A DNA stretch of 64,000 bases from an uncultured delta proteobacterium (GCA_963790475.1 CAWBOS010000012.1:1152001-1216000); one strand, 5' to 3'; shown: positions 4,346 to 61,510, counted from the stretch's first letter. The notes: generated by a model from the letters alone, not told the origin. Program-made: numbers and translations.

Positions 4346-5485
4346 ATGAAGGCGTTATTAGCATTAGAAGACGGGACGGTATTCCCGGCCCGGTCCTTCA
4401 CCGGCCCTGGAGAGGCCGAAGGGGAATGTGTGTTCAACACGGCCATGACCGGATATCAGGAAATCATGACCGACCCTTCGTATAAAGGACAGTTGGTGAC
4501 CATGACCTATCCCTTGATCGGGAATTACGGAACCAATGATCAGGATGTCGAATCAGACCGGATCCAGGTCGAGGCCTTTTTGGTCAAGGAATATCTGCCC
4601 TTTCCGAGCAATTTTCGCTCTCAGGCCCCTTTGGCTGATTATCTTAAGAAAAATAAGGTGCTGGGACTAGAGGGAATCGACACCAGGGCCTTGACCCGTC
4701 ATCTGAGAAATTGTGGGGCTATGCGAGCTGTTGGCTCGACAGAAGAATTAAGACCGGAAGTATTAATCGAAAAGGCAAGGTCCATTCCATCTATGCTCGG
4801 CCTGGCATTGGCTGATCGGGTCACCACCTCCCGGCCTTACCGCTGGATTCAAGGCAAACCACAACCCATCCCTTCGGAGCAGGTGGTCCATCCATGGAAT
4901 GCCAGTGGATCTGAATATAAGGTGGTGGTTGTCGACTACGGTATTAAATACAACAGTCTCCGCTCATTAGAGAAGAGAGGATGTCAGGTACTGGTAGTGC
5001 CGGCCCAGACTTCGGACCGGGAAATCCTGGCTTTAAGACCTGACGGCCTATCTACTTTCCAACGGCCCCGGTGATCCGGCCGCCGACCTGGGGATCATAA
5101 AGACCATTCAAAATCTCTTGGGCCTGATGCCCATATTCGGTATCTGTCTGGGGAATCTTTTCCTGGGCTGGCCTTGGGTGGGACAACTTCAAAACTCAAG
5201 TTCGGCCACCGGGGGGCCAACCAGCCGGTCAAATATTTGAAGACCGGCCGGGTGGAAATCACCTCTCAGAATCACGGCTTTTCCGTGGATTTGGAATCGC
5301 TGAAGGATCCCGACGTGGAACTGACCCATATCAACTTAAACGATCAAACCCTGGAAGGGATGGAACATAAAAGGCTGCCCATTTTTTCCGTCCAGTATCA
5401 TCCCGAGGCCTCGCCCGGTCCTCATGATGCCTCTTATTTATTTGATCATTTCCTGTCCCTCATGAGGAAAAGCCGGAGAAAATAG
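4346..5485 (+). CDS. carA: Carbamoyl-phosphate synthase small subunit, frameshifts near 5050 and 5170
   Basis: [17 protein letters not shown] and GICLG in shifted frame, [22 protein letters not shown]. Confidence 0.95.
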
Positions 5486-5488
5486 TCC

Positions 5489-8400
5489 ATGCCCAAACGA
5501 ACCGACATTCAAAAAATACTGATTATCGGCTCCGGACCGATCATCATCAGTCAAGCCTGCGAATTTGATTATTCGGGCACCCAGGCCTGCAAGGCCTTGC
5601 GGGAGGAAGGTTTTGAAATCGTCCTGGTCAACAGCAACCCGGCCACGATCATGACCGACCCGGAGATGGCCCATAGAACTTATATCGAACCGGTCACTCC
5701 CGGAAATCGTGGCCAAGATAATCGAACGGGAACGCCCTCAGGCCTTACTGCCGACCTTGGGCGGGCAGACCGGTCTTAACACCGCTGTTGCCGTAGCCGA
5801 GATGGGGGTTTTGGACCGTTTCGGCGTTGAAATGATCGGGGCCTCGCTACCGGTGATTAAAAAGGCCGAGGACCGGGATGAGTTCCGCCGGGCCATGTGG
5901 AAGATCGGGTTGCGAGTGCCGGAAAGCGTTATTGTCACCAGCTTGGAGGAAGCCCGCGCCCAGGCCGAAAAAATCGGCTACCCGAATATCATTCGGCCCA
6001 GCTTTACCTTGGGTGGGACCGGCGGTGGAGTGGCCTATAACCGGGAGGAATTCGAACGCCTGGTAACCTCCGGACTTGAGGCCAGCATGATCCATCAGGT
6101 CATGCTGGAGGAATCGGTCTTGGGCTGGAAGGAATTTGAACTGGAGGTCATGCGGGATTTCAAGGACAATGTGGTCATTATTTGTTCCATTGAAAATTTC
6201 GATCCCATGGGCGTCCATACCGGGGATTCCATTACCGTGGCCCCGGCCCAGACCCTGACCGACAAAGAGTATCAATTAATGCGGGATGCCTCTCTGGCTA
6301 TCATCCGCGAGATCGGGGTGGAGACCGGCGGATCCAATATCCAGTTTGCCGTGCATCCCGGGACCGGCGAGATGGTGGTCATTGAAATGAATCCCCGGGT
6401 CTCCCGGTCCTCGGCCCTGGCCTCAAAGGCTACCGGATTTCCAATCGCCAAGATCGCCGCCAAACTGGCCGTGGGTTATACCCTCGATGAAATCCCCAAT
6501 GACATCACCAAAGAGACCATGGCCTCTTTTGAACCGACCATTGATTACTGCGTGGTGAAGATCCCCCGCTGGACCTTTGAAAAATTTCCCGGAGCGGAAG
6601 ATTACCTGACCACTTCCATGAAATCCGTAGGCGAGGCCATGGCCATCGGCCGAACCTTCAAAGAAGCTCTGCAAAAAGGGATCCGCTCCCTGGAAATCGG
6701 AAGATTCGGGTTTGGGGCCGACGGAAAGGATCTTTTTCAGATTCCTTTGGATGAAATCCACAAAAAACTCCGCCAGCCCAATTCCCAACGGATTTTTTAT
6801 TTGAAGGCCGCTCTAGAGGCGGGCATTGGGGTTGAAGAAATTTATGACCTGACCGGGATAGACCCTTGGTTTCTCCGTAACCTGTCCCAGATTTTGGTCA
6901 TGGAAAAAACCTTGGCCGGACAGACCATGGAAACTCTGACGCCGGAATTGCTGCGACAGGCCAAGGAATACGGCTTCTCCGATGTGCAGCTCGGCCATTT
7001 GCTAAAGGCGCCTTCAGCGGAAGTATTTGAGAAAAGACAAAAACTCGAGATGCTTCCGGTCTACAAATTAGTGGATACCTGCGCTGCCGAATTCGAGGCC
7101 TATACCCCTTATTATTATTCGACCTATGAGCAGGAAGATGAGTCTCGGGCTTCGGAAAAAGAACGGATCATGATCCTCGGCGGCGGGCCCAACCGGATAG
7201 GGCAGGGGATCGAATTCGACTATTGCTGTGTCCATGCTTCCCTGACGGCCAGGGAAGAGGGCTATACCAGCATCATGGTCAACAGTAATCCGGAAACGGT
7301 CAGCACGGACTATGATATTTCCGACAAACTGTATTTTGAACCCCTCACCCATGAAGATGTCTATCATATCATCGACCGGGAAAAACCCAAGGGGGTCATC
7401 GTTCAGTTCGGGGGCCAAACCCCTTTGAATCTTGCTGTGGGTCTTCAAGCGGTCTCGGCCCCGATCATCGGCACTTCACCGGACAGTATCGACCGGGCCG
7501 AAGACCGGGAACGCTTTAAAAAATTATTGAAAAAGTTGGGTTTGCTTCAGCCGGAAAACGGGACGGCCTTTACCACCCAGGAAGCCCTGGCCGTTGCCGA
7601 AACGATCGGCTACCCCGTGGTCGTCCGGCCTTCTTATGTCCTGGGTGGCCGGGCGATGGAGATTGTTTATGAGCCGGCGGCCCTGGAAATTTTTATGGCC
7701 AAAGCGGTTCTGGTCTCACCGGGCCATCCTATCCTGATCGATAAATTTCTGGAGGAGGCCATTGAAATCGACGTGGACGCTGTTTCCGACGGGCAAAAGT
7801 CCTTGATCTGCGGGATTATGGAACATATTGAAGAGGCGGGGATCCATTCCGGCGACAGTGCTTGCGTCCTGCCCCCTTATACGCTCAAAGCAGAGCAGAT
7901 TGACCGGATTAAATCCAATACCTATGCCTTGGCCCGGGAGTTGGGGGTTCAGGGTCTTATGAATATTCAATATGCGATTAAAGGCGACACCCTCTATGTC
8001 CTGGAGGTCAATCCCCGGGCTTCGCGGACGATCCCCTTTGTCAGTAAGGCCACCGGAATTCCTTGGGCCAAGGTGGCTACCCGGGTGATGCTGGGTCTGA
8101 CCCTGGAATCGCAAGGGTTGACTAAAGAGATTGTTCCCGCCCATATTTCAGTCAAGGAATCGGTATTCCCCTTCTTACGTTTTCCTGGAGTGGATACGCT
8201 GCTTGGCCCGGAGATGAAGTCCACCGGAGAGGTCATGGGCATTGATCAAAGTTTCGGCCTGGCCTTCGCCAAATCGCAGTTGGCCGCCGGCGTCGATCTG
8301 CCCCTGACCGGCACGGTCTTTATCAGTGTCAAAGACCAGGATAAAAAAATGATTCTATCCACGGCCCAAAAGCTCTATAATCTGGGGTTTAAAATCATGG

Positions 8401-50002: not shown

Positions 50003-50078
50003 TTAAAAATCAGACCACTGTATCTTTGGGAAAGAATTAGTCGGCACTATAATGGGCCTTAGTGAGGGACCGTCATTT

Positions 50079-51509
50079 ATGAAAAATAAGGAATTCAATC
50101 TTTACGAAAAAGTGGCCGCCAATATGGCCCGGCTGATAGACCAGGGCACCTTTCGGCCCGGAGATCGCATCCCTTCCATCCGAGGTCTCAGCCGCCGGAA
50201 GAAGGTCAGTATAAGCACGGTCATGGAAGCTTATCGCCTTCTCGAAGATCGTGAGTTGATCGAAGCCCGTCCCCAGTCGGGTTATTATGTGCGCCGTTTG
50301 TATCACCAGACCCTCATTGAACCAAAACCGACTAAACCGGAGAAAAGTCCGACCACCGTCAGTGTTGATGAGTTGGTCAGGATGGTGATACGAGACAGCC
50401 GGAACCGGAATCTTGTTCCCCTGGGTGCGGCCGTTCCCAATCCTGAAAATCTGCCCGTTGGCAAGTTGAACCGAATCCTGGCCTCCGTGGTCCGGCAAAA
50501 AGGTTCCCAGAGCATTTCCTATGAGATGTCCAACGGCTTCGAGGACCTCCGAGTTCAGATTGCCCGGCGTTTATTCTCTTCCGGGTGCTCATTAAACCCC
50601 CGGGAGATATTGATCACCTCCAGGATGACAGGAAGCGGTTACGCTCTCTCTGATGGCTGTCTGCCGCCCGGGAGACACGGTGGCCATAGAATCCCCGACC
50701 TATTTTAATCATCTCCAAATGTTGGAGGTACTTCGGCGCAAGGCCATAGAAATCCCGACCCACCCCCGTTATGGAATCAGCCTGGAGGCCTTGGGGACAG
50801 TTTTGAAAAAGAACAGGATACGGGCTTGCCTGCTTATCCCCAATTTCAGCAATCCTCTGGGAAGCCTGATGCCCGATTACCGGAAACAGGCACTGGTTAA
50901 AATGCTCGCCCAAAATGACCTTCCCCTCATCGAAGATGACATTTACGGGGATCTTGGTTTTTCTCCGGAAAGGCCAAGAGTGGTCAAAGCCTTTGATAAA
51001 GAAGGACTGGTGCTTCTGTGCTCTTCTTTTTCCAAGACCCTGGCCCCGGGATACCGGATAGGCTGGGTTACCCCGGGACGTTTCCAAACGGAGATAGAAC
51101 GATTGAAATCGGCCTGCACCATCGCCACAGCCACGGTCCCTCAGATGGCCATTGCCGAATTTTTAGTCAATGGGGGTTATGATCATCACCTCAGAAAAAT
51201 CCGAAGGATTTATATGCGGCAGATCTGGTCGATGACCCAGGCGGTAGGGAAATTTTTCCCCCCCGGAACCAAGGTAACCCGGCCGCGGAGGATTTGTGCT
51301 TTGGGTGGAATTACCGGAATATGCCGATGCCCGGAAGCTTTACGAACTGGCGCTGAAGGCCGGGATCACCATTGCCCCCGGCTCCCATCTTTTCCGTCAG
51401 GCAGGGATATCCGAATTATATCCGTCTGAATGCCGCCTTCTGGTCGGATAAAATCGAAAAGGCCCTGGCCACCTTGGGAGGGCTGGTGGAGACGATGAAG
51501 CCTGCCTGA
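50079..51509 (+). CDS. MocR/GntR-family PLP-dependent regulator, frameshifts near 50620, 51285 and about 51385
   Basis: LYEKVA..PGDRIPSIR..EARPQSGYYV, ESPTY, PNFSNPLG, IEDDIYGDL, SFSKTLAPGYRIGW. Confidence 0.9.
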
Positions 51510-51577
51510 GCCTGTACTAAAATCCCTTTTTTTCTCCTTAACTTCTCTTCAATCTTTTTGATCCCAATATTATATGA

Positions 51578-51798
51578 AAATAGGTTTAAAAAAAGGGATG
51601 CCCTGGGATGAGCCGAGATAAGGCGGGATATCTTATTTAAATTAAAGGATATTTGAATGACTTTAAAATATAGTTTAGGTTTTAGTTAAAACCTTAAAAA
51701 TTCCATTTTCCCCACCCTATAGAATGAAACTCATAAAACAAAATTAATAAATATTTCTATATATTATAATTGGTCTTAATGGAAACCTATTTGCAATT
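51578..51798. repeat. Left-end candidate transposase-binding boxes
   Basis: AAATAGGTTT at 51578-51587 (inverted) and GAAACCTATTTGCAATT at 51782-51798, identical to 61131-61147. Confidence 0.7.
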
Positions 51799-52011
51799 GG
51801 CTTATTAGAGGGTCAAATTTTCAAGTTAAAAATATATAATGAGGGTCATTGTCATTAAGTATCTATAATTTCATAAAAATTTTTCTGATACACAATACCA
51901 AAAGCGAAAACAATGAGGTTCACCAGAGGTTCATCATTTTTTTTATTTTTCCCTTGCAAAAACGTTTTTAATGGTGTATTAATATGAGGTACGATAGGAT
52001 CATATTTCATA

Positions 52012-52599
52012 ATGATTGATATTTATAGCAATCGAGATCTCGTTAAATGGTTCAAGATGAGCCCTAGTCAGGCCATTCACTGGACCGAGCGCGGCCTAAT
52101 AAGCTTCGTCGTAGATTCAAGAGGTAGAGGATCACAAAGAGGATATGATATTCAGGGAGTTTTCCAGGCTGGCATCGTTAAATCATTATTTGATATGGGG
52201 CTAAGTCTTCATATGGTGAAGAGTATTATGGCTCAACTTGTAAGGCACGAAAAACTCGAAAATATCATGGATCAATTAGATAAACCTCGTCATGATTTGG
52301 TAGAAATTATAGAAAAAGGTCCCATTGGGGTTTTGTTGTATTATCTCATGAAAGATGGGCCTGGAAGATTATTCATCTCCCTTCGTCCCGTTCGAGACGT
52401 TCTCTCGGGCTTTACCGAAGATAGTTTACCCAATGAAGGAATTTCGAATATTAGCGGCTTTATTTTTTTGGACCTGGGGTCAATCTGGTGGCGGGTTCAT
52501 AGAGAGGCTCTTAAGGTTCCACGGAAGGAAACGCTCACTGATCTGGCTGGCGAATGGGAGCACTCAACCGAGAATATACCTACTATTAAAAAGAAATAA
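52012..52599 (+). CDS. MerR-type HTH regulator
   Basis: YSNRDLVKWF..IHWTERGLI..GRGSQRGYD..LFDMGLSL. Confidence 0.75.
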   Translation: MIDIYSNRDLVKWFKMSPSQAIHWTERGLISFVVDSRGRGSQRGYDIQGVFQAGIVKSLFDMGLSLHMVKSIMAQLVRHEKLENIMDQLDKPRHDLVEIIEKGPIGVLLYYLMKDGPGRLFISLRPVRDVLSGFTEDSLPNEGISNISGFIFLDLGSIWWRVHREALKVPRKETLTDLAGEWEHSTENIPTIKKK

Positions 52600-52648
52600 A
52601 TTTTTTTGGTGATCATGATATATAATACGATCATATGTCACACTTTAA

Positions 52649-52876
52649 GTGGAGAAGAAAATGCTTAGTTGGTTAAAATTAAGAATTCGACTCGAATACC
52701 AAGTTCAGGGGGATTTCGCCCGAGCCTGTGGAAAGTCTGAGGCTTGGCTTTCCAGGATAGTTCGAGGGCGGAAAGAACCAACCAAAGAAGACAAAGAGTT
52801 GATCATCTCAAAATTAAAACCAGAATTTCCGGAAATGCTTTTTATTAATACAGACCAGGCAAAAGACGAACAATAA
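52649..52876 (+). CDS. Small XRE/Cro/Ner-like HTH protein
   Basis: QGDFARACGKSEAWLSRIVRGRKEP..EMLF, immediately upstream of transposase. Confidence 0.8.
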   Translation: MEKKMLSWLKLRIRLEYQVQGDFARACGKSEAWLSRIVRGRKEPTKEDKELIISKLKPEFPEMLFINTDQAKDEQ

Positions 52877-52884
52877 GGCCAGTA

Positions 52885-54738
52885 ATGCGCGAAAAATATA
52901 CATTGACGGTCAAGGAATTTTCTGAACGTGAAAGGATAAGTGTCAGTACGGTAAAGAGGCGCATAAAAGGGAAAAGCATTATTCCCATAAAAATAAAAAG
53001 GCCAAAAGGGTGCAAGGGAAATCGTTTTGAATTAAGAATTTCACATATTTATTTAACAGACAAGGAAAATTTTTTAAAAGAAAAAGGATTATTCCCTGAA
53101 AAGGATGAACTTAAAAACGGTGATTCAAAAAAGAAACAAGAATTAAAGCCTTTTCAAATAAAAGTGGCCGATTATAGATTGAAAATTTTAAAAAAATGTG
53201 ATGCGAGGACTGAAGGCCTCACCGGGAAAATAAGAACAGAAGTTATGAAGGAAGTCGCGAAAGAAGAAGGTAAAACTCTTGGAACCATTAATAGTTATTA
53301 TTCCAGATTTCATAAAGGAGCGTTTGAAGGGTTAGCCCCGCACTGGACGAACGGATCAAGGAAAAAGCGGATTACCAAAGAAATGCGCAAAGATATCAAG
53401 GACCGCTACCTTACGTTAAATGGGGACAATGGTGTTGAGGTCTGTGAGTTTATTGAAAAGAAATATGGTGATCAGGCTCCCTCTCGTAGAACAATTTATT
53501 ATTTTATCACAAAGACTTGGACTCTAGCTACTCGAACGTCCATACGAGAGCCTAATAAATTTAGAAAATTTGATCCTTTTCTTAGAAGAGACCCGTCCAC
53601 TTTAAACCTGCTGGATGTCGTTATTCTCGACGGCAAAAAGATGGATTACCTCGTCTGGTATAAGAATAGACTCATCCGGCCCTGGCTCTACGCGGCTATG
53701 GATTGGAAAAGCAGGAAAACAATAGCCTGGGTTATAACAATAAACCTCAACAGTGATGCGACTGGGCAGGTGATTTACTATATCTATCGCAATTACGGAG
53801 TCGCTGGAGAATTCTATGTTGACAATGGGCCTGAATTTAAGAATGCACACATATTAAGAGTTTGCAGTGAAGCGGGAACTAAAGTTCACCTTGCCTTCGG
53901 TCAGCATCCGCGCGAAAAACCAATTGAAGCCGCTTTTAAATATTTTACTTATCGCCATAAAAATTTTCCGGGATGGGTTGGTCATAATACCAAAATTAGG
54001 GATAACGCGCGCCTGAAACGAGAAATGGAAAATGGACTTATTTGGAAATTCGAAGACTTTGGTCCCGAAGTTGATAAATGGATAATCGAAAGAAATAGCC
54101 AATTGATTCATGGAGATACTAAAAAAACACCCAATAGCTTCTGGGTTGATTTTGTTCCACAGGTTTACTCTGAGGCCCATTGTGACTATCTGCTTATGTT
54201 AAAAGATGAATGCAAGGTGAACGATTCTACGGTTCAAGTTGGGCCAAAGCTTTATAGAGGCACGAAGCTATTGAGATTGGCCGGGCAAAAACTTGTAATC
54301 AGAAGAGATCCTAAAGATCTCTCAAGGGCGGTTGCCTTTTATGAAGAGAAAATTTTTGAGGTCCTAACTGAAGAACGCAGAGATGATGGGCGGGGGCCGC
54401 TAACAGAGGAATCCCGAAAAAATAATAGAAAGATCCGGAAGAACTTTAAAAATTTTCAAAAAGCTGTTCTGGAGGATGAAGAAAATAATTCCGATCTCCT
54501 GTTTTCGGAAGTTCAGAATGGACCGGGAAAACCCCTCCGGAAAAGTGATGTCCGCCACCCTAATGTTATCCGCTTTGATCCGGGGGAGAGACTTTTCAGA
54601 AATACTAAAAAGGCCTTAGCCGAGTCAAAAAATGATGAACTTGAGGAGGCCCAGGAGGCTGCTGCCGGTGGGGGAAGAAAAGATATTTTTTCCAAATTAG
54701 CGAAAATTCACCCCCCAATAGTTGAGGAGGAATATTGA
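52885..54738 (+). CDS. Mu-type DDE transposase
   Basis: N-terminal HTHs (LTVKEFSERERISVSTVKRRI; EGLAP; PSRRTIY), VILDG, AMDWKSRK, YVDNGPEF, EKPIEAAF, Mu C-terminal RRDPKDLS. Confidence 0.9.
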   Translation: MREKYTLTVKEFSERERISVSTVKRRIKGKSIIPIKIKRPKGCKGNRFELRISHIYLTDKENFLKEKGLFPEKDELKNGDSKKKQELKPFQIKVADYRLKILKKCDARTEGLTGKIRTEVMKEVAKEEGKTLGTINSYYSRFHKGAFEGLAPHWTNGSRKKRITKEMRKDIKDRYLTLNGDNGVEVCEFIEKKYGDQAPSRRTIYYFITKTWTLATRTSIREPNKFRKFDPFLRRDPSTLNLLDVVILDGKKMDYLVWYKNRLIRPWLYAAMDWKSRKTIAWVITINLNSDATGQVIYYIYRNYGVAGEFYVDNGPEFKNAHILRVCSEAGTKVHLAFGQHPREKPIEAAFKYFTYRHKNFPGWVGHNTKIRDNARLKREMENGLIWKFEDFGPEVDKWIIERNSQLIHGDTKKTPNSFWVDFVPQVYSEAHCDYLLMLKDECKVNDSTVQVGPKLYRGTKLLRLAGQKLVIRRDPKDLSRAVAFYEEKIFEVLTEERRDDGRGPLTEESRKNNRKIRKNFKNFQKAVLEDEENNSDLLFSEVQNGPGKPLRKSDVRHPNVIRFDPGERLFRNTKKALAESKNDELEEAQEAAAGGGRKDIFSKLAKIHPPIVEEEY

Positions 54739-55703
54739 TGTCTATGTTGGCCTTGCATTCAAATCTATCCGATGATCAGGCTCTAGGAGATGGATATAAC
54801 AGAAAACTTCATGATGACTTTCTTTTTTTAAAGGCCCAACTCGGGATTTCTTATCCAGAAATCGCCCTAGAAATCAATGTCCTTGCGGATACTCTTCAGT
54901 TATACGCGAATAAGCCCTCCATAGGTAATTTTAAAGAGCTTGAAAAAAAACTTGCCCGCTGGGTAGGCAAAAAAATAAATCCCGGACTTCTTCAGGATTC
55001 TAATTATCTTGCGATCAGTCCTTCGGAAAAGGGATTAACCATTTGCCAAGCTTCTCGGATAGAAAGGATTATGGCCCTTATAATTGCTTCTTCCGGTTGG
55101 GGCAAGGCTACGTTTGAAAATGAGTTTTGCCGTCGATTCCCGGACACGGTTTTTATTAGCTGTGATGTCACTATAAGGTCGCTCGGGGCAGTACTTGATC
55201 TACTCGGACACCAAATGCCGGTCGCGAGAAATCATCTAAATAATACCGCCTTTCTCTTGAAAATTATCGACAATTTAAAAAATAGTGGCCGTCTTTTAAT
55301 CGTCGATGAATGCCATTTTTTAAGTTGGCCGGGGTTTGAGATTTTCCGGAAAATTCATGATTGGGCCAAAGTTGGAGTCGTTTATTCCGGTCAGGAGTAT
55401 ACCCTCTCGCAAATGCGAGGGCGAAAAGGCTTTTTGTATGATCAAATCTTTAGCAGGTTATCTATTACTTGTGAGCTTAACACACTAGAGCGAAATGATG
55501 TCGTTCTTTTAGCCGATTCCGTTTGTTCGGGTTTAGATAAAAGATGCATAGATTTCCTAGCCAATAAAGCGCGCGGGCGGGGTCATTTTCGGGTTATGAT
55601 GACTGTGTTGCGAAGGGCCGCACAATTAGCCCAAGCAGAAAATATTCCCCTTACTTTAAATATTTTAAAAGAGGCCAATGAATTTTCAGGAGGTCTGTTA
55701 TGA
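54735..55703 (+). CDS. MuB/TniB-like AAA transposition ATPase
   Basis: N-terminal HTH, ASSGWGKA (variant Walker A), LLIVDECH Walker B, RKIHD, QIFSRL, GHFR. Confidence 0.88.
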   Translation: MMSMLALHSNLSDDQALGDGYNRKLHDDFLFLKAQLGISYPEIALEINVLADTLQLYANKPSIGNFKELEKKLARWVGKKINPGLLQDSNYLAISPSEKGLTICQASRIERIMALIIASSGWGKATFENEFCRRFPDTVFISCDVTIRSLGAVLDLLGHQMPVARNHLNNTAFLLKIIDNLKNSGRLLIVDECHFLSWPGFEIFRKIHDWAKVGVVYSGQEYTLSQMRGRKGFLYDQIFSRLSITCELNTLERNDVVLLADSVCSGLDKRCIDFLANKARGRGHFRVMMTVLRRAAQLAQAENIPLTLNILKEANEFSGGLL

Positions 55704-56056
55704 CTTTATCAGTTAAGGCTCAAAAAATTTATGAATCCCTCGATGAAAAAACAAAAAGGGTCATTAAGGGAAGCTACCCTTTTAAAAAGCTTCGGAATGA
55801 GGCCATCGCCGACCTGGGGAAAAAAGGTGTTAATGGGCGCCTCTTGGCTGAGATTACCGGCTTGAGTACTTCCAGTGTAAGCCGCATTTTGGGGACAGGC
55901 GGACAGACGCGATACAAACCCGACAGGAGAGAGGTAGAATTGTGGAAATTAAAAGAGATGATTGATGGACTCTATAAGCGCTACAGGCGCTTTATCTTGG
56001 CCAGAGACGAAAGGAGGGGGAAAAAAGGCATAGATGGCAGGGCGGGGAAGACTTAA
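55700..56056 (+). CDS. HTH DNA-binding protein (Mor/C-like position and pattern)
   Basis: LRNEAI..GVNGRLLAEITGLSTSSVSRIL. Confidence 0.65.
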   Translation: MTLSVKAQKIYESLDEKTKRVIKGSYPFKKLRNEAIADLGKKGVNGRLLAEITGLSTSSVSRILGTGGQTRYKPDRREVELWKLKEMIDGLYKRYRRFILARDERRGKKGIDGRAGKT

Positions 56057-56106
56057 ACGTTTTTAAACGGGTTTTAAAAGCTTTTAAACGCTATAGGGAG
56101 GGAAAA

Positions 56107-56442
56107 ATGAGTCAAGTTCCGAGTGAAGAGCTTAAAAACGTGTTTAATGTACTCGACACGGGGAAAGAGGATGATACAGGAAGACCTTTTAGCGGAGGAT
56201 TGGGGATTTTGGATGACTTGCAAACCTGGGCTTGTAAATTGGAATCACTGGGCGACGCCATAAGTAGTATGGCTTTTGCGGATAGTCAGAATAAATGCGA
56301 TTCAAGTCTTGCGTCTTCTGGTGAACAATTAGGATATATCATTAAAGATTACGCCAAAGCGATTTTTAGTGTTCTTGGGACCCCGGAAATGTATTCACTA
56401 TTTAAGAAAGCCGAGGAAGAGAGACGAGGGAAGAAATTGTGA
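56107..56442 (+). CDS. Hypothetical helical protein
   Basis: GGGAGGG RBS, 111 aa, co-oriented in element. Confidence 0.65.
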   Translation: MSQVPSEELKNVFNVLDTGKEDDTGRPFSGGLGILDDLQTWACKLESLGDAISSMAFADSQNKCDSSLASSGEQLGYIIKDYAKAIFSVLGTPEMYSLFKKAEEERRGKKL

Positions 56443-56450
56443 TGTAGGGT

Positions 56451-56576
56451 TCTTGGTTTGCCCTGGATAGGCCGATCACCGAAAAGGCGGAAACTCTCAC
56501 CGCCCTGCCAGGGTAAAATAAATGAGAGGCAACCAAGAGAGGGTTGCGATAGCCGGGTGCTATCCAACCCTTTTTT
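56451..56576 (+). promoter_or_regulatory. Structured RNA leader ending in an intrinsic terminator just before the tape measure RBS
   Basis: GGGTTG-c-GATAGC-cgggt-GCTATC-CAACCC-TTTTTT (56541-56576) preceded by nested stems. Confidence 0.7.
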
Positions 56577-56590
56577 ATTAGGAGGAGACA

Positions 56591-59035
56591 ATGGCTGAAG
56601 TAAAAATTGAAATCACCGCCCAGGACAATGCCTCCGGAGTTTTTAAAAACATCCAATCTGCAAACAGTTCTGCCCTTAATCAGATGTCCGCTGAAACCAG
56701 GAACTATACCGAGAGCAGCAAGAGCCTGGTCACTTCTCTAAAGGAACACTGGGTCGCCGCCTCGGTGGCCGTTTATGGGGCCTGGAGGTTGATCCAGGAG
56801 GGGCTGGACCTGGCCAAGCTGGGAGCACATGCCCAGCAGGCAGAGGAGTCATTTAGGACGGTTGTCGCTTCATATGGAGAAGATGCAGACGTCCTCCTTT
56901 CTAAAATGAAAGAGGCATCGCGGGGGTTAATTGATGACTCAGATTTGATGCAAAGGGCGGTCAAGGGACTTATGTCAGGGGCAGACTCCTCACAATTGGT
57001 TACACAACTTCAATATGCCAGCTATGGTGCCAGAATAGCCGCAACCTCTGTGGCAGATGCCTATGATATCGCGACAAATGCATTATCAAACCAAATGCTC
57101 CGAGGAGAGAAGGTGGTTGGACTGCAAGGAGACCTAAATAAAGCCTTCACTGAAGAGGCCGAAAAACTTGGAACAGTTGCGGGGGCGCTTAATGAAACGA
57201 CACAAACCCATGCTTTATTTGCTCAGGCGGGAGAGGATGCTATTCAAAAGATGAAGATCATGGGGCCACTTACTGAAAATGCAGCAGAGAAGTTCCAGAA
57301 AATGCAGGTTCAGGTAACGGAATTAAAAGAGACTATTGGAAAAGGACTGGTGGTTGTTTTAGAGACCGTCGGCGCTCTCTTTTATTCAGTGGCCACCGGA
57401 GCCCTGTATTTAGCGGGGGCTTTCGCCACGGTGGGGCAGGGCCTTGATTATATTGCTGGGAATTTAGGAGGTGCCGAGAAACTTAGGGATATTGCGAATA
57501 ACCTTTTCGGCGCTGCCGCCGAAACTAACAAAAAGGCCGAGACCATGTGGAAGGCAGTGGGCGCGGCAATTGAGGGTGCGACCAGCAAAATAAATAATGC
57601 CGCCGCCGCGCAATTGAAATCTGACCAGACTGCCAAACAACAAGCCGATTCTCTAAACTTATTAAAAGATAAAATTAAGGAGGCCAACACCTCTGTCGAG
57701 GAATTCGGGAAAAAGATGGGCGACCTGGCCCCGGACCTGAACGAAACGTCCAAAAAGGTCGCTGATGTGACCCAGGAAGTTCAAAAGATGAAACAAACCT
57801 TGCTGCAAAACGTGGGTCAAAATGTGCTGGACCAATTGGCCCCACAGATCGATGCTGCCGCGGCGGCGGGAATATCCAATATTTATAAGCAGCAGCTCAA
57901 GGATTTTGATGATCTCATGACCGGGATGTCCACTGCCCGCAAAGAAGGGATCACAAAGGATCTGGCCGAGATCGATAAGTCCCTGGCCGATGAGACCAAG
58001 AAATTTGGGAATAACTCGGTGATGATGACCGCCATCGCCCAGGCCGAAGACCTGAAGCGGATCGACAGCCTGAAGAAATGGAAAGATTCCCTGATCTCGA
58101 TGCACAATGAGGCGATCGACAAGGCACGGGAATATTATAAGACCGTCGAGGACCTGAATCTCGAACTCAGCAAAGGCACCATTTTTCTGGATCAATGGAA
58201 AAAGGGATTCCCTTCTGACCAGAAGTCTGTCTTTGAGAAAAGTCGGCAAGATCTTCAACTGATGATTGACATGGCCAACAATAACCCCACCCTGCAAAAT
58301 CTACAGTCCGCCAAGTCGGCCATTGAAAGTTTCGCTCAGCAGAACGATCCCTTGAGGACTACGCTTATAGATACCCCAGGAAAAGGTTTGCAGCCGATAT
58401 GGAAAGATTCTGATGTCGCCAAAATGCAAGATCAATATGCGAGCATCCAGACTTCGATAGCAGGGGTAAAAGATGCGACCCAGACACTTGGCGATTCATC
58501 GATGACAACCGCCATGAAATTTATTGACATTATCAAGCCTATAGATCAGGCGATGGACCTGCTCAAATCAAGAGTCACCGATTATATCGATATGATCTCC
58601 ATCCAAAGGCAGGTCACACTGGATACCTCGCCGGCAGTTGATTCCCTCCAGGCCCTAATCACAAAAACCACAGAGGCCCTGGGCTATATCCAGCAGCTTG
58701 ACCGCTATAATACTTTCTCCACTTCCGCCATGTCCGGCCTTGCGCCCTCGGCTCCGGCTGCCGAGGTGGCGCCCCCCGAAAATGTGCCGGTTATGGCCGG
58801 AGGAACGCCCTACGTCCGTAAGGCGGGATATGCCTGGGTAGATCCGGGCGAGCGGGTGATGACTGCCGACCAGAACCGGGCCTATAGCGGCGGCGGGAAA
58901 CAATCTTCTGTTTCTTTTGGGGATATTAAAATAAGTATTCAGGGAGTCAATGACGTCGAAGAGATCGCCAGGAAAATTGCGATTCCCTTGCAGAAACGAT
59001 TCCGCGAATTGAATCATCTCTTGGGCGGAAACTAA
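56591..59035 (+). CDS. Phage tail tape measure protein
   Basis: N-terminal EVKIEITAQDNASGVF, long Ala/Gln/Lys helical body with hydrophobic stretch, C-terminal MAGGT..GYAWVDPGERVMTADQN..SVSFGDIKISI. Confidence 0.85.
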   Translation: MAEVKIEITAQDNASGVFKNIQSANSSALNQMSAETRNYTESSKSLVTSLKEHWVAASVAVYGAWRLIQEGLDLAKLGAHAQQAEESFRTVVASYGEDADVLLSKMKEASRGLIDDSDLMQRAVKGLMSGADSSQLVTQLQYASYGARIAATSVADAYDIATNALSNQMLRGEKVVGLQGDLNKAFTEEAEKLGTVAGALNETTQTHALFAQAGEDAIQKMKIMGPLTENAAEKFQKMQVQVTELKETIGKGLVVVLETVGALFYSVATGALYLAGAFATVGQGLDYIAGNLGGAEKLRDIANNLFGAAAETNKKAETMWKAVGAAIEGATSKINNAAAAQLKSDQTAKQQADSLNLLKDKIKEANTSVEEFGKKMGDLAPDLNETSKKVADVTQEVQKMKQTLLQNVGQNVLDQLAPQIDAAAAAGISNIYKQQLKDFDDLMTGMSTARKEGITKDLAEIDKSLADETKKFGNNSVMMTAIAQAEDLKRIDSLKKWKDSLISMHNEAIDKAREYYKTVEDLNLELSKGTIFLDQWKKGFPSDQKSVFEKSRQDLQLMIDMANNNPTLQNLQSAKSAIESFAQQNDPLRTTLIDTPGKGLQPIWKDSDVAKMQDQYASIQTSIAGVKDATQTLGDSSMTTAMKFIDIIKPIDQAMDLLKSRVTDYIDMISIQRQVTLDTSPAVDSLQALITKTTEALGYIQQLDRYNTFSTSAMSGLAPSAPAAEVAPPENVPVMAGGTPYVRKAGYAWVDPGERVMTADQNRAYSGGGKQSSVSFGDIKISIQGVNDVEEIARKIAIPLQKRFRELNHLLGGN

Positions 59036-59068
59036 TTAAAAAAAAGTCATTTGAAAGGAGGGCTCGCT

Positions 59069-60271
59069 ATGGAAAATTCCAGAAATCTTTTAGAGGATAT
59101 TGAGAGGACACTCTTTTACCAACGTCATGGTTCAACTGGATTGAGCATCGGAAAAGACGAACTTCAAAAGGGAAGAGATGCCCTTGTTAAAACCTTCATC
59201 CCCGAATACCCTTCGGGCGGGTTTAGTGGGTTCAAGGGACTCCGGGAAGCCTACATTTACTTTACCGGAGATAATGAACTGCGCGGCAAGGCAGCCGGTT
59301 TCAGCCCCTCTAAGGTGTCGAGTGGCCTGCGGGGTTGCGCCGACTTCAATTCAAATACTTTCAGCTTTGCCCTGCAAAATGCTTTAAATATGTACCTCTC
59401 TAAGGCCTATGCGGCATTCCCTTACCACGAAGAGATATTCATCTCTGAGATAAAGACGGTCACTGATTTCAGGAAAATTACTTCCCTTCAATTGGCCTAC
59501 CCAGGAGATCTTCCTGATGTCGATCCGGAGGCGGGCGATTATCAGTCTCTTGGAGAGTATATAGATACCGAGTCTCAATATGATCTTGAACACAAAGGAG
59601 GGATCACCTGGGTAACGAGAAAACACCTCATCAATGATTCGGTAGGTCTGGTTCAGGCCATGATTAATAGAAGGGCGCGATCCGCCAGGAGAACTCATGC
59701 GAAATTTGTTTGGAGCTTTTTTATTAATAACTCCAACTGTCCGGATGGAACGGCGTGGTTTACTGCGCCACATGGGAACTTAGGATCAGACGCCTTGAAT
59801 TTTGATCCCCTGGCCGCAGCCATCACGGCCCTGGCTGATATGGAGGAACCGGGGTCAGGAGAAAAGCTTGGGATGGATCTTGCCAGCTTTAATTGGAATC
59901 TGGTTATCCCTATTGCCCTCTGGAAGCTGGCCATATCGAAAAATCAGGCAAGGCATTATTATGATTCAAACGATTTAACTGACAAGATCGAGAATCCAAA
60001 CTGCCGCCTGTTCGGTGATCATAACGAAAGAATTATCGTCTGTCCCTTTATCACTGATTCTAACGATTGGGGAGTTGTTAGAGATAAAAATGATGTCCCG
60101 ATTATCGAAATGTCTTATCTTAATGGACATCAGGAACCGGAATTTATTACTGCCGATGCGTCACTAGCCGAGAGAAATTTTCGATCAGACGACTATGGCT
60201 ATAAGATCAGACATGAATATGGCGGCACCTTGGCCGGATCACAGGGCGGATACAAATCCGTTGTAGCCTAA
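59069..60271 (+). CDS. Phage major capsid protein (Mu gpT-related HK97 fold)
   Basis: VTDFR, TRKHLINDS, ARRT, DGTAWF..HGNL, LVIP, PIIEMSYLNG..P, KIRHEYGG pattern of transposable-phage capsids; AAGGAGG RBS. Confidence 0.85.
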   Translation: MENSRNLLEDIERTLFYQRHGSTGLSIGKDELQKGRDALVKTFIPEYPSGGFSGFKGLREAYIYFTGDNELRGKAAGFSPSKVSSGLRGCADFNSNTFSFALQNALNMYLSKAYAAFPYHEEIFISEIKTVTDFRKITSLQLAYPGDLPDVDPEAGDYQSLGEYIDTESQYDLEHKGGITWVTRKHLINDSVGLVQAMINRRARSARRTHAKFVWSFFINNSNCPDGTAWFTAPHGNLGSDALNFDPLAAAITALADMEEPGSGEKLGMDLASFNWNLVIPIALWKLAISKNQARHYYDSNDLTDKIENPNCRLFGDHNERIIVCPFITDSNDWGVVRDKNDVPIIEMSYLNGHQEPEFITADASLAERNFRSDDYGYKIRHEYGGTLAGSQGGYKSVVA

Positions 60272-60289
60272 AGAATAGAGTTTCCCAAA

Positions 60290-60366
60290 GCCCATAGCCT
60301 TTCCTCCCTATGGGTTCCAGGCAGGGCGGTTTCTGACCCAAAGCAGAAATCGCCCTTAGCTTGGAA
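60290..60366 (+). other. Two tandem hairpins after the capsid gene
   Basis: CCCATAG-cctttcctcc-CTATGGG; TTCCAGGC-AGGGCGGTTTCTG-loop-CAGAAATCGCCCT-ta-GCTTGGAA. Confidence 0.65.
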
Positions 60367-60379
60367 TAAAAGGACTTGC

Positions 60380-60760
60380 ATGAGAAAAAGCGATTTTTTA
60401 ACTGATATTGCCCAAAACTATGAACCAAAGATTGAAGCAGTATTTTTTTGTAATGAGAAGTGTTTGCCAAAAGGTGTTTTTGGTATGGCAAATGCCCTCC
60501 CCAGTCTGGAATGGTATCGAATTCTTATTCACAATAAACTTCTTTTCTGCCCGATCCGCTCCTTTTGGACCTTTTTCCATGAGCTTGGTCATATTGTTTT
60601 GGGTCACTTTGGCCGGATGGATGATGGAAGTGAGGAGAGGGCCGCAGGCGAATGGGCATTCAGGGAGATGGGAACAATTGACCAAGAGGGAAAGATAAAG
60701 AAGGAAAACGCCTTTTGTTATGTTTGCCTCTCTACCTATTCAAAATCATGCCTTAAATAA
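60380..60760 (+). CDS. ImmA/IrrE-like HExxH metallopeptidase
   Basis: WTFFHELGHIVLGH, EERAAGEWA. Confidence 0.75.
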   Translation: MRKSDFLTDIAQNYEPKIEAVFFCNEKCLPKGVFGMANALPSLEWYRILIHNKLLFCPIRSFWTFFHELGHIVLGHFGRMDDGSEERAAGEWAFREMGTIDQEGKIKKENAFCYVCLSTYSKSCLK

Positions 60761-60764
60761 TTTC

Positions 60765-60974
60765 ATGACCAAATACGACCCCAAAAAAGCAGAACAATAT
60801 AAGGGACGTCCACATTCCCACTATCGGAACCAGGGCAAGCATAAATGCAGGTTATGTGGGAAGAAAACAGACAATCATTGGAACTGCCCGGAGTGCCTGG
60901 AAAGGATGGCCAAAGGAGAGATCGAGGCGCCGGTAACCGATATCTTGGGCCAGGATCTCGACGTGCCTTTATAG
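60765..60974 (+). CDS. Small zinc-finger protein
   Basis: CRLC-N9-CPEC. Confidence 0.55.
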   Translation: MTKYDPKKAEQYKGRPHSHYRNQGKHKCRLCGKKTDNHWNCPECLERMAKGEIEAPVTDILGQDLDVPL

Positions 60975-61130
60975 TAGGCTTTAAAGCCGTTTTAGCGGGC
61001 CATTTATGGGCCTTTAAATTTGTTTTAAACTGATCTTAAAGGATCTCCTTCGCTGCTAGTTTGGGGATCGGAAGCTCTTCAAGATCGAATAGGATTTGTG
61101 TTCTCTTTTTTTCTCGCCGTTTTTTTTATT

Positions 61131-61164
61131 GAAACCTATTTGCAATTTTTCAAAACCTATTTGC
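61131..61164. repeat. Right-end tandem candidate transposase-binding boxes
   Basis: AAACCTATTTGC at 61132 and 61153 (21-bp spacing). Confidence 0.75.
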
Positions 61165-61510
61165 GCGTTTTACCCAATTGGAAATCAATTGTAATAAGTA
61201 TCCCTTCATTTTCCTACTGGTTCTGTAGGAAAAACCATTCAAATTATTTTATCCAAATTGCTTGTATTTAAAAATAATAATATAATTCATCAAGTTATAT
61301 TTAACTATCCCCATGGCATATTCTTTGCTGAAGTAGTTGCTAAAGGCCTCTGGTTGTTTCGGCTATAAAAAAATTCAATCGGGTACCCTAACTTAACCCG
61401 GAATCCATAGCCGATTCAAAAGAAAAACCTGTCTCCTGTTTTAACCAAATTGAAAAAACGATTGAATAAAACCTATTAACTAATTGGTCAATTAAGGGGA
61501 GGCAAATATC

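Follow-up and report, generated by a model that had tools for sequence, protein, structure and literature searches.

A compact Mu-type transposable element of ~9.6 kb occupies positions 51575 to ~61166 of a 64-kb stretch of DNA from an uncultured delta proteobacterium (CAWBOS010000012.1:1152001-1216000; referred to here as the window). It is a member of a conserved, selected, and recurrent family of non-autonomous Mu-type elements that carry a capsid cassette. Five parts define this cassette: an RNA motif (int-alpA), the c8 protein family, a stand-alone HK97-fold major capsid protein (MCP), a minimal HExxH zinc peptidase, and a cysteine-rich protein (c5). We consider the chances to be about even that the family represents transposition-based, satellite-like parasites of related 41-43 kb Mu-like phages.

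The element has ten intact frames in one orientation, separated by short gaps, from 52012 to 60974 (Table 1). This segment is richer in AT than its surroundings. To its left is an aminotransferase gene, with its stop codon at 51510, and to its right is a response-regulator gene (61511). Four matches to the 14-mer GAAACCTATTTGCA, including those with one or two mismatches, were present in the window, compared with 0.63 expected. All four were at the ends of the element (51575 on the minus strand; 51782, 61131, and 61152 on the plus strand). Frame calls and the box search thus confirmed the ten co-oriented, intact genes with boxes at both ends that a first-pass annotation of the same DNA had described. 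Its call of a MuB-like protein and a transposase with the D-D-E residues also held. Profiles identified both proteins, the catalytic residues D249, D313, and E348 are nearly invariant in an alignment with 26 relatives, and the MuB-type partner gene sits directly downstream of MuA. Profile searches found no terminase, portal, tail, baseplate, or lysis gene among the ten element proteins, in agreement with the earlier proposal that the element is non-autonomous.

There are two full-length MuA genes in the whole genome, one for each of two copies of the element. The second copy, on contig C10, is divergent but has an identical ten-gene order with all frames intact. Its terminal box is different, and the layout of its ends is identical. 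Between the two copies, the transposition module is far more divergent than the cargo (Table 1). The ratio of nonsynonymous to synonymous substitution rates (dN/dS) was 0.12 for the MCP gene and 0.16 for the gene encoding a tape measure protein (TMP), with dS near saturation. The relaxed selection on these two genes that the first-pass annotation had considered was therefore not seen.

We extended the analysis to other genomes and metagenomes. There were 202 MCP homologues in a large protein collection (E up to 1e-5). A single MCP used as the query against genome contigs returned no loci, but an alignment query succeeded, and scans of this type produced 16 genome, 51 IMG/VR, and 80 metagenome loci. 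Removal of contained duplicates left 132 loci, which were clustered gene by gene (the c5, c7, and c8 families and several flanking genes were annotated by this clustering alone). A stand-alone MCP of ~395 amino acids was found at 47 loci in public assemblies, although this and the other compact-locus counts still include some near-duplicate contigs. At the 22 of these loci with at least 5.5 kb visible upstream, MuA and MuB were each present in 21/22, and the large terminase subunit (TerL) was present in 0/22. The HExxH gene came after the MCP gene in 29/41 compact loci with at least 600 nt downstream, and c5 was present in 19/27 with at least 1400 nt downstream. GemA is often present as well. 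Most compact elements are ~8-11 kb, with a few larger ones, and they are mainly from metagenome-assembled genomes (MAGs) of Deltaproteobacteria/Thermodesulfobacteriota. Their flanks are host genes, such as ABC, kinase, and TonB genes (L016), nrdD and nrdG (L019), and a cell-division-type cluster (G163 and G054). Inverted repeats are present at both ends of contigs L137 (8106 nt) and L037 (10134 nt); therefore, each of these contigs is one element. The same gene order recurring at unrelated sites, which the first-pass annotation had proposed looking for, was found in both the C10 copy and the compact loci.

A fused protease-MCP of ~800 amino acids was encoded at 59 other loci, and these have a full-phage architecture. 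Upstream of the MCP gene are a small-terminase-sized gene, TerL (confirmed by comparison with T4 gp17 and other terminases), a portal gene, a ~280-amino-acid gene, and c8, and downstream are connector, tail, and TMP genes. MuA was near one end in four of the five 41.6-43.4 kb fusion records tested. Therefore, these are Mu-like phages. Homologues of c8 and TMP are found in full phages too, whereas HExxH and c5 were present in 0/59 fused-MCP loci, and an HExxH profile had no match in five full-phage records.

Compact elements could be decaying remnants of full Mu-like prophages, produced by separate deletions, with the retained structural genes being functionless. This would fit with the homology between their genes and those of full Mu-like phages and with the atypical CG at which the outer right box of the window copy ends. 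However, the compact order is repeated in dozens of assemblies, and TerL was absent from all 22 of the loci described above, so that the closest relatives are not full-length prophages and the window copy is not a one-off deletion. The presence of the architecture in many independent assemblies also disposes of an assembly collapse, which had been raised along with the deletion in the first-pass annotation. Furthermore, the compact MCPs are monophyletic. In an MCP-core tree of 121 rows, one branch with an SH-aLRT value of 100 held 46/47 compact-context rows, 0/62 full-phage rows, and 8 rows without context (the tree came from a quick LG+G4 search with every MCP-cluster open reading frame of at least 300 amino acids, seven shorter ones being excluded). 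The ten frames are intact in both copies, dN/dS values are 0.12-0.2, and the element-specific genes and RNA motif are missing from the sampled full phages. The remnant explanation is already largely refuted, and we give it almost no chance of being correct.

A second comparison came from G163 and G054, two species that belong to a different genus and have an element at the same site (L177, 3576-12220; L178, 4090-12186). Between them, dN/dS was 0.146 for MCP (dS 0.26), 0.124 for HExxH, 0.20 for c5, and 0.25 for c8. As judged by these ratios and those of the two copies above, compact-element capsid genes evolve under purifying selection. The G163 and G054 cargo proteins are 83-93% identical, compared with 48% amino acid identity for MuA and 56% for MuB, which suggests that the transposition module has been exchanged in place at this site. 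Simple co-divergence fails to explain the shared site because dS is 3-4 times as high in the elements as in the host genes on either side. The downstream genes look like an mraZ-to-murF cluster, from gene sizes and one N-terminal sequence examined by eye.

Table 1. Features of the element in the window, with amino acid identity to the second copy (contig C10)
Feature	Position	Strand	Evidence or remark	Identity between copies
Left terminal box	51575..51594	-	Starts TG; inverted relative to right-end boxes	
GGGAT-rich motif inside left end	51592..51632	+	Kept in second copy and L096 despite differing transposases	
Internal end-box copy	51776..51798	+	Box search	
MerR-like helix-turn-helix (HTH) regulator (weak)	52012..52599	+	PF13411 E 0.0044, sub-threshold	30%
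Small HTH in Ner position	52649..52876	+	HTH_31 E 2e-4, sub-threshold	50%
MuA-like DDE transposase	52885..54738	+	phrog_310 E 3.8e-53; rve and Mu-transpos_C	27%
MuB-like AAA+ target-DNA activator	54735..55703	+	phrog_296 E 1.3e-32; AAA_22 and Phage-MuB_C	37%
hth5, conserved small HTH protein	55700..56056	+	Identity between the two copies	87%
c7 family protein, function unassigned	56107..56442	+	Clustering	
int-alpA RNA motif (RF02996)	56460..56529	+	45.6 bits, gathering threshold 35.8; full-length match	
Tape-measure-like protein, 814 amino acids	56591..59035	+	Transitive homology to TMPs	60%
HK97-fold MCP, no protease domain	59051..60271	+	PF25209 E 3.7e-25	73%
Minimal HExxH zinc peptidase (predicted)	60380..60760	+	Four conserved cysteines	73%
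Zn-ribbon protein	60720..60974	+	Weak Pfam matches; occupies position of cysteine-rich c5 in other members	86%
Two tandem right-end boxes, 21 nt apart	61125..61166	+	Inner box ends CA (61144), outer box ends CG (61165)	

The capsid protein is related to those of the full phages. Its matches to the "prohead protease/major capsid fusion" families of PHROG and NCBIfam are confined to their C-terminal third (E 3e-36 with the NCBIfam protease/MCP fusion model). Its residues 60-405 align to residues 459-797 of a 798-amino-acid protease-MCP fusion with 44% identity, and therefore the protease part has been lost and there are 59 new residues. Among deposited phage capsids, the closest is that of Microcystis phage Mae-JY22 (30% identity). 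The predicted structure (pLDDT 90.1) is a complete HK97 fold in which the ~100 N-terminal residues are modeled as three helices. Foldseek matched this model, with a probability of 1.0, to HK97, gene transfer agent, Mu, and other capsids but also to encapsulins. Along with the lack of a portal or terminase in most members, the encapsulin matches could mean that the element carries a non-viral HK97 shell, either encapsulin-like or another domesticated compartment, that rides on a transposon. We consider this very improbable. The nearest sequence relatives are the capsid domains of the protease-MCP fusions in 41-43 kb Mu-like phages and, unlike the situation for encapsulins, the neighbors of the shell gene are phage genes (c8, TMP, portal, and GemA), with no cargo enzyme conserved beside it.

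The int-alpA RNA is located just before the TMP gene of the window copy. In 8/10 and 6/8 other compact loci it had the corresponding position, preceding the c8/TMP/MCP block, so that with the window it was present in 15/19. In the whole genome it scored above the cut-off twice, once in each copy of the element. It was absent from 7/7 full-phage loci, and a separate search of full-phage records found it in 0/5, although the control genomes of that search also gave none. For 3 of the 15 base pairs in the fold, compensatory changes on both sides were present among nine copies. We also looked at the motif as an intrinsic terminator, but this was dropped because an A-rich stretch, and no U-run, comes after the stem in these copies. 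A third match in the genome was sub-threshold (32.2 bits) and outside both elements (C10:292097-292163).

The TMP assignment of the 814-amino-acid protein rests on transitive homology, because there is no direct match to a Pfam, NCBIfam, or PHROG TMP model but its homologues match TMP PHROGs. Its N-terminal ~400 amino acids have 1722 homologues (E up to 1e-3). Among 43 sampled homologues, 22 matched the TMP family phrog_3779, others matched further TMP PHROGs, and one matched a Pfam TMP model. Both the N- and C-terminal parts resemble tape measures in the tail modules of full phages. Ten compact loci were visible widely on both sides, and six of them had a TMP (those of L019, L020, L022, and L026 were labeled in separate per-locus analyses), one had a portal, and none had TerL. 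The TMPs are in several positions and belong to several families, and in some members a portal is present instead of, or besides, a TMP (L019 and L015). Therefore, the tape measure is a frequent accessory gene and not part of the core. The first-pass annotation had made it a defining gene of the element, a role that passes to the five-part cassette described above, which that annotation had not recognized. Four elements with TMP upstream of the capsid gene (the window copy in its 56591 region, L006, L019, and L118) do not have c8, and elements with TMP downstream of the capsid gene retain it. TMP seems to have taken the place of c8 at that spot. A c8 profile had no matches among PDB sequences.

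The HExxH protein is a predicted peptidase in which H67, E68, and H71 are invariant across 35 relatives, and the four cysteines are invariant or nearly so. No Pfam model matched it at E 0.1, including the M78 (ImmA/IrrE) profile. Its predicted structure (pLDDT 90.8) had weak matches to abylysin, selecase, CapP, Ste24, and SprT-like proteases, the protein had weak matches to Lit and CapP models, and its atlas neighbors were phage IrrE-like, M78, and U49 clusters. It therefore resembles ImmA/IrrE, CapP, and the minigluzincins in having an HExxH motif in a small alpha/beta fold, with weak structural matches, but it differs from them in its four conserved cysteines and its fixed place after the capsid gene. 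An hth5 profile compared with PDB sequences had weak HTH matches, the best being 8vd6 (E 0.0036) and 7t5u (E 0.01).

The Lit and CapP matches bear on the main rival explanation, which is a role in defense or assembly interference. The element would be a mini-Mu with anti-phage cargo, its capsid, TMP, or portal protein would be dominant negative and poison incoming Mu-like phages, the HExxH protein would be a sensor or effector, and the element would be spread by transposition and other vehicles but never in particles of its own. Single structural genes that are homologous to full-phage ones, with the rest of the module missing, fit this explanation, as does cargo that is better conserved than the transposition module. 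However, a PADLOC scan of the element proteins gave no match at a convincing level. The modeled capsid protein is also a confident, complete HK97 fold with an N-terminal helical extension and not a fragment, and a packaged unit would fit with the 8-11 kb sizes and with contigs whose ends coincide with the inverted repeats. We consider the anti-phage explanation unlikely. Known satellites both interfere and hijack, so it overlaps with the satellite reading.

If the elements are satellites, then a helper phage is expected somewhere. The first-pass annotation had proposed looking for a complete Mu-like prophage in the same genome, and none was found. Portal_Mu, Phage_portal, and TerL_ATPase had no match above the cut-off in the 6.3-Mb genome (a Terminase_6N match was sub-threshold), and other genes of the related full phages had no tblastn match there. 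However, prophages are often missing from MAGs, and a helper may come from outside the genome. The genome of the window was also examined for CRISPR-like matches to the loci, and the only one was a dispersed ~30-nt repeat. This host repeat (for example, C4:15007-15201 and C10:462603-462635) also occurs several times in the full-phage loci L064, L076, and L078, a possible sign that the hosts of these phages are related.

Several observations weigh against the satellite reading. The satellite step itself is inferred. A TerL profile search found no related helper prophage in 10 of the 11 genomes that carry compact loci, a result that also favors the anti-phage explanation, and the eleventh has an orphan TerL with no portal or MCP gene beside it. 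(This TerL, at L180 15493-16953 on contig C256 of G035, has 66% identity to the TerL of a full Mu-like phage.) Neither a small terminase subunit nor a pac site was recognized. We saw no 5-bp target-site duplication at either copy, with no matching 5-mer beside the candidate termini, and the window copy might be immobile because its outer right box ends in CG where the left end predicts CA. The single public DNA run that contains the sequence provided low-depth contigs, without junctions or a signal of copy number or activity, and no RNA run containing it was listed. Finally, the family is rare. An MCP of this family was present in 5 of 401 sampled genomes of the phylum (stand-alone in three of the five), and it was absent from 20/20 other genomes of the order.

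The satellite reading suggests the following mechanism. The element would move and amplify by MuA/MuB transposition, would make no virions alone, and would spread as a satellite, with the related 41-43 kb Mu-like phages as its helpers. The helper terminase would package it from its Mu-type left end, into a shell made entirely or in part of the capsid protein that the element encodes and fitted with a tail from the helper. The HExxH peptidase and hth5 would be the likeliest switch or maturation factors, and interference with helper assembly would be a by-product. A more specific claim is that this is the first satellite lineage in which Mu-type replicative transposition takes the place of an integrase and replicon, one that makes its own small shell from a capsid protein without the fused protease, uses the peptidase and cysteine-rich protein for maturation or regulation of this shell, and has the int-alpA RNA, in common with PICI/P4-type islands, as a switch for the whole cassette. 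In this version, because the cassette recombines onto very different MuA/MuB backbones, what persists as a selfish unit may be the capsid cassette and not the transposon. We regard that combination as possible but doubtful.

Comparison with known systems shows where the elements differ. They are like Mu-like phages in having MuA, MuB, a Ner-like regulator, multiple end boxes, and, in many members, GemA. They are also like the 41-43 kb Mu-like phages (e.g., L041, L043, L050, and L060) in their homologous capsid core, c8, and tape measures. However, they are one quarter the size of a Mu-like phage and lack genes for terminase, tail, baseplate, and lysis. In the 41-43 kb phages, the capsid protein has a fused protease, whereas that of the element has none, and the element adds the HExxH peptidase, the cysteine-rich protein, and the int-alpA RNA, none of which were found in the full phages sampled. 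Laboratory mini-Mu derivatives consist of the Mu ends with the A and B genes and are packaged only with a helper Mu. In contrast, these elements are natural, conserved, and widespread, and they have their own capsid cassette under purifying selection.

Among satellites, the elements resemble cf-PICI, P4, PICI, PLE, and PICMI as small (~7-20 kb), non-autonomous, phage-related islands. To our knowledge, the P4-like, PICI, cf-PICI, PLE, and PICMI families are all integrase-type islands. The int-alpA RNA is named after the integrase-alpA gene pair of PICI/P4-type islands, and carrying it is a further likeness to them. Table 1 of one source gives this gene pair as typical of PICI and P4-type islands (PMC13612085). 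However, unlike PICI, P4-like, and cf-PICI islands, the element has no integrase, primase, replicon, or alpA gene and would be moved and amplified by MuA/MuB. According to one report, cf-PICIs encode their own capsid protein and all of the proteins needed for their small capsids (10.1101/2022.09.08.507074). The cf-PICI capsid and packaging module is full (MCP, portal, protease, connectors, and small terminase), whereas the elements have only the capsid protein with or without one additional structural gene. A full-text literature search, with subscription journals outside its coverage, found no description of such elements or of transposition-based satellites.

If the satellite reading is true, then a satellite that amplifies by transposition adds a new route for the origin of phage parasites and links two textbook systems, Mu and satellites. 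A minimal Mu derivative with one capsid gene would also be a simple model for redirected capsid size or assembly, for the maturation of a protease-less HK97 protein, and for the role of the int-alpA RNA. Prophage and satellite finders will overlook or mislabel these elements if they depend on an integrase or on a complete structural module.

Flanking DNA narrowed the limits of the insertion. Homology between a congener (G009) and the right flank starts at window ~61183-61193, and another congener (G011) has only the aminotransferase in common, up to 51499. Therefore, the left limit of the insertion is within 51511-51575 and the right limit is within 61144-61183. The left flank aligned to G009 with a score of 41, which did not exceed the maximum of 49 for shuffled sequences, and there was no clean empty site among the congeners examined. 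The exact right terminus has two candidates, 61144 (CA) and 61165 (CG). An automated terminal-inverted-repeat search, applied to the window copy only, was noisy. Just inside the left end, the GGGAT-rich motif, which is conserved next to different transposases, is a candidate operator or pac region. A scan for promoters and terminators gave no signal above that of shuffled sequences.

A 9543-nt metagenome contig, L107, is circularly permuted (~5420-6050 and both ends). Its right-end boxes are ~110 nt from its left-end box, and the final 102 nt of the contig are a 94% match to the opening 102 nt. Possible explanations are a tandem pair, a circular form, or two variants assembled together. Ribonucleotide reductase genes are directly beyond the right end of three elements, being nrdD/nrdG-like in L019 (13646-16663) and L102 (after 8332) and class II-like in L036 (9283-11514). 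These neighbors could reflect an insertion preference or cargo. Finally, the MocR/aminotransferase-like gene upstream of the element in the window (50052-51510) is broken into two frames. Compared with the window, a short-read contig of run X1 has 2 nt fewer at 51284 and 1 nt fewer at 51384, and the G011 orthologue of this gene aligns with a 1-nt gap. Therefore, the frameshifts are probably assembly errors and the gene is not a pseudogene.

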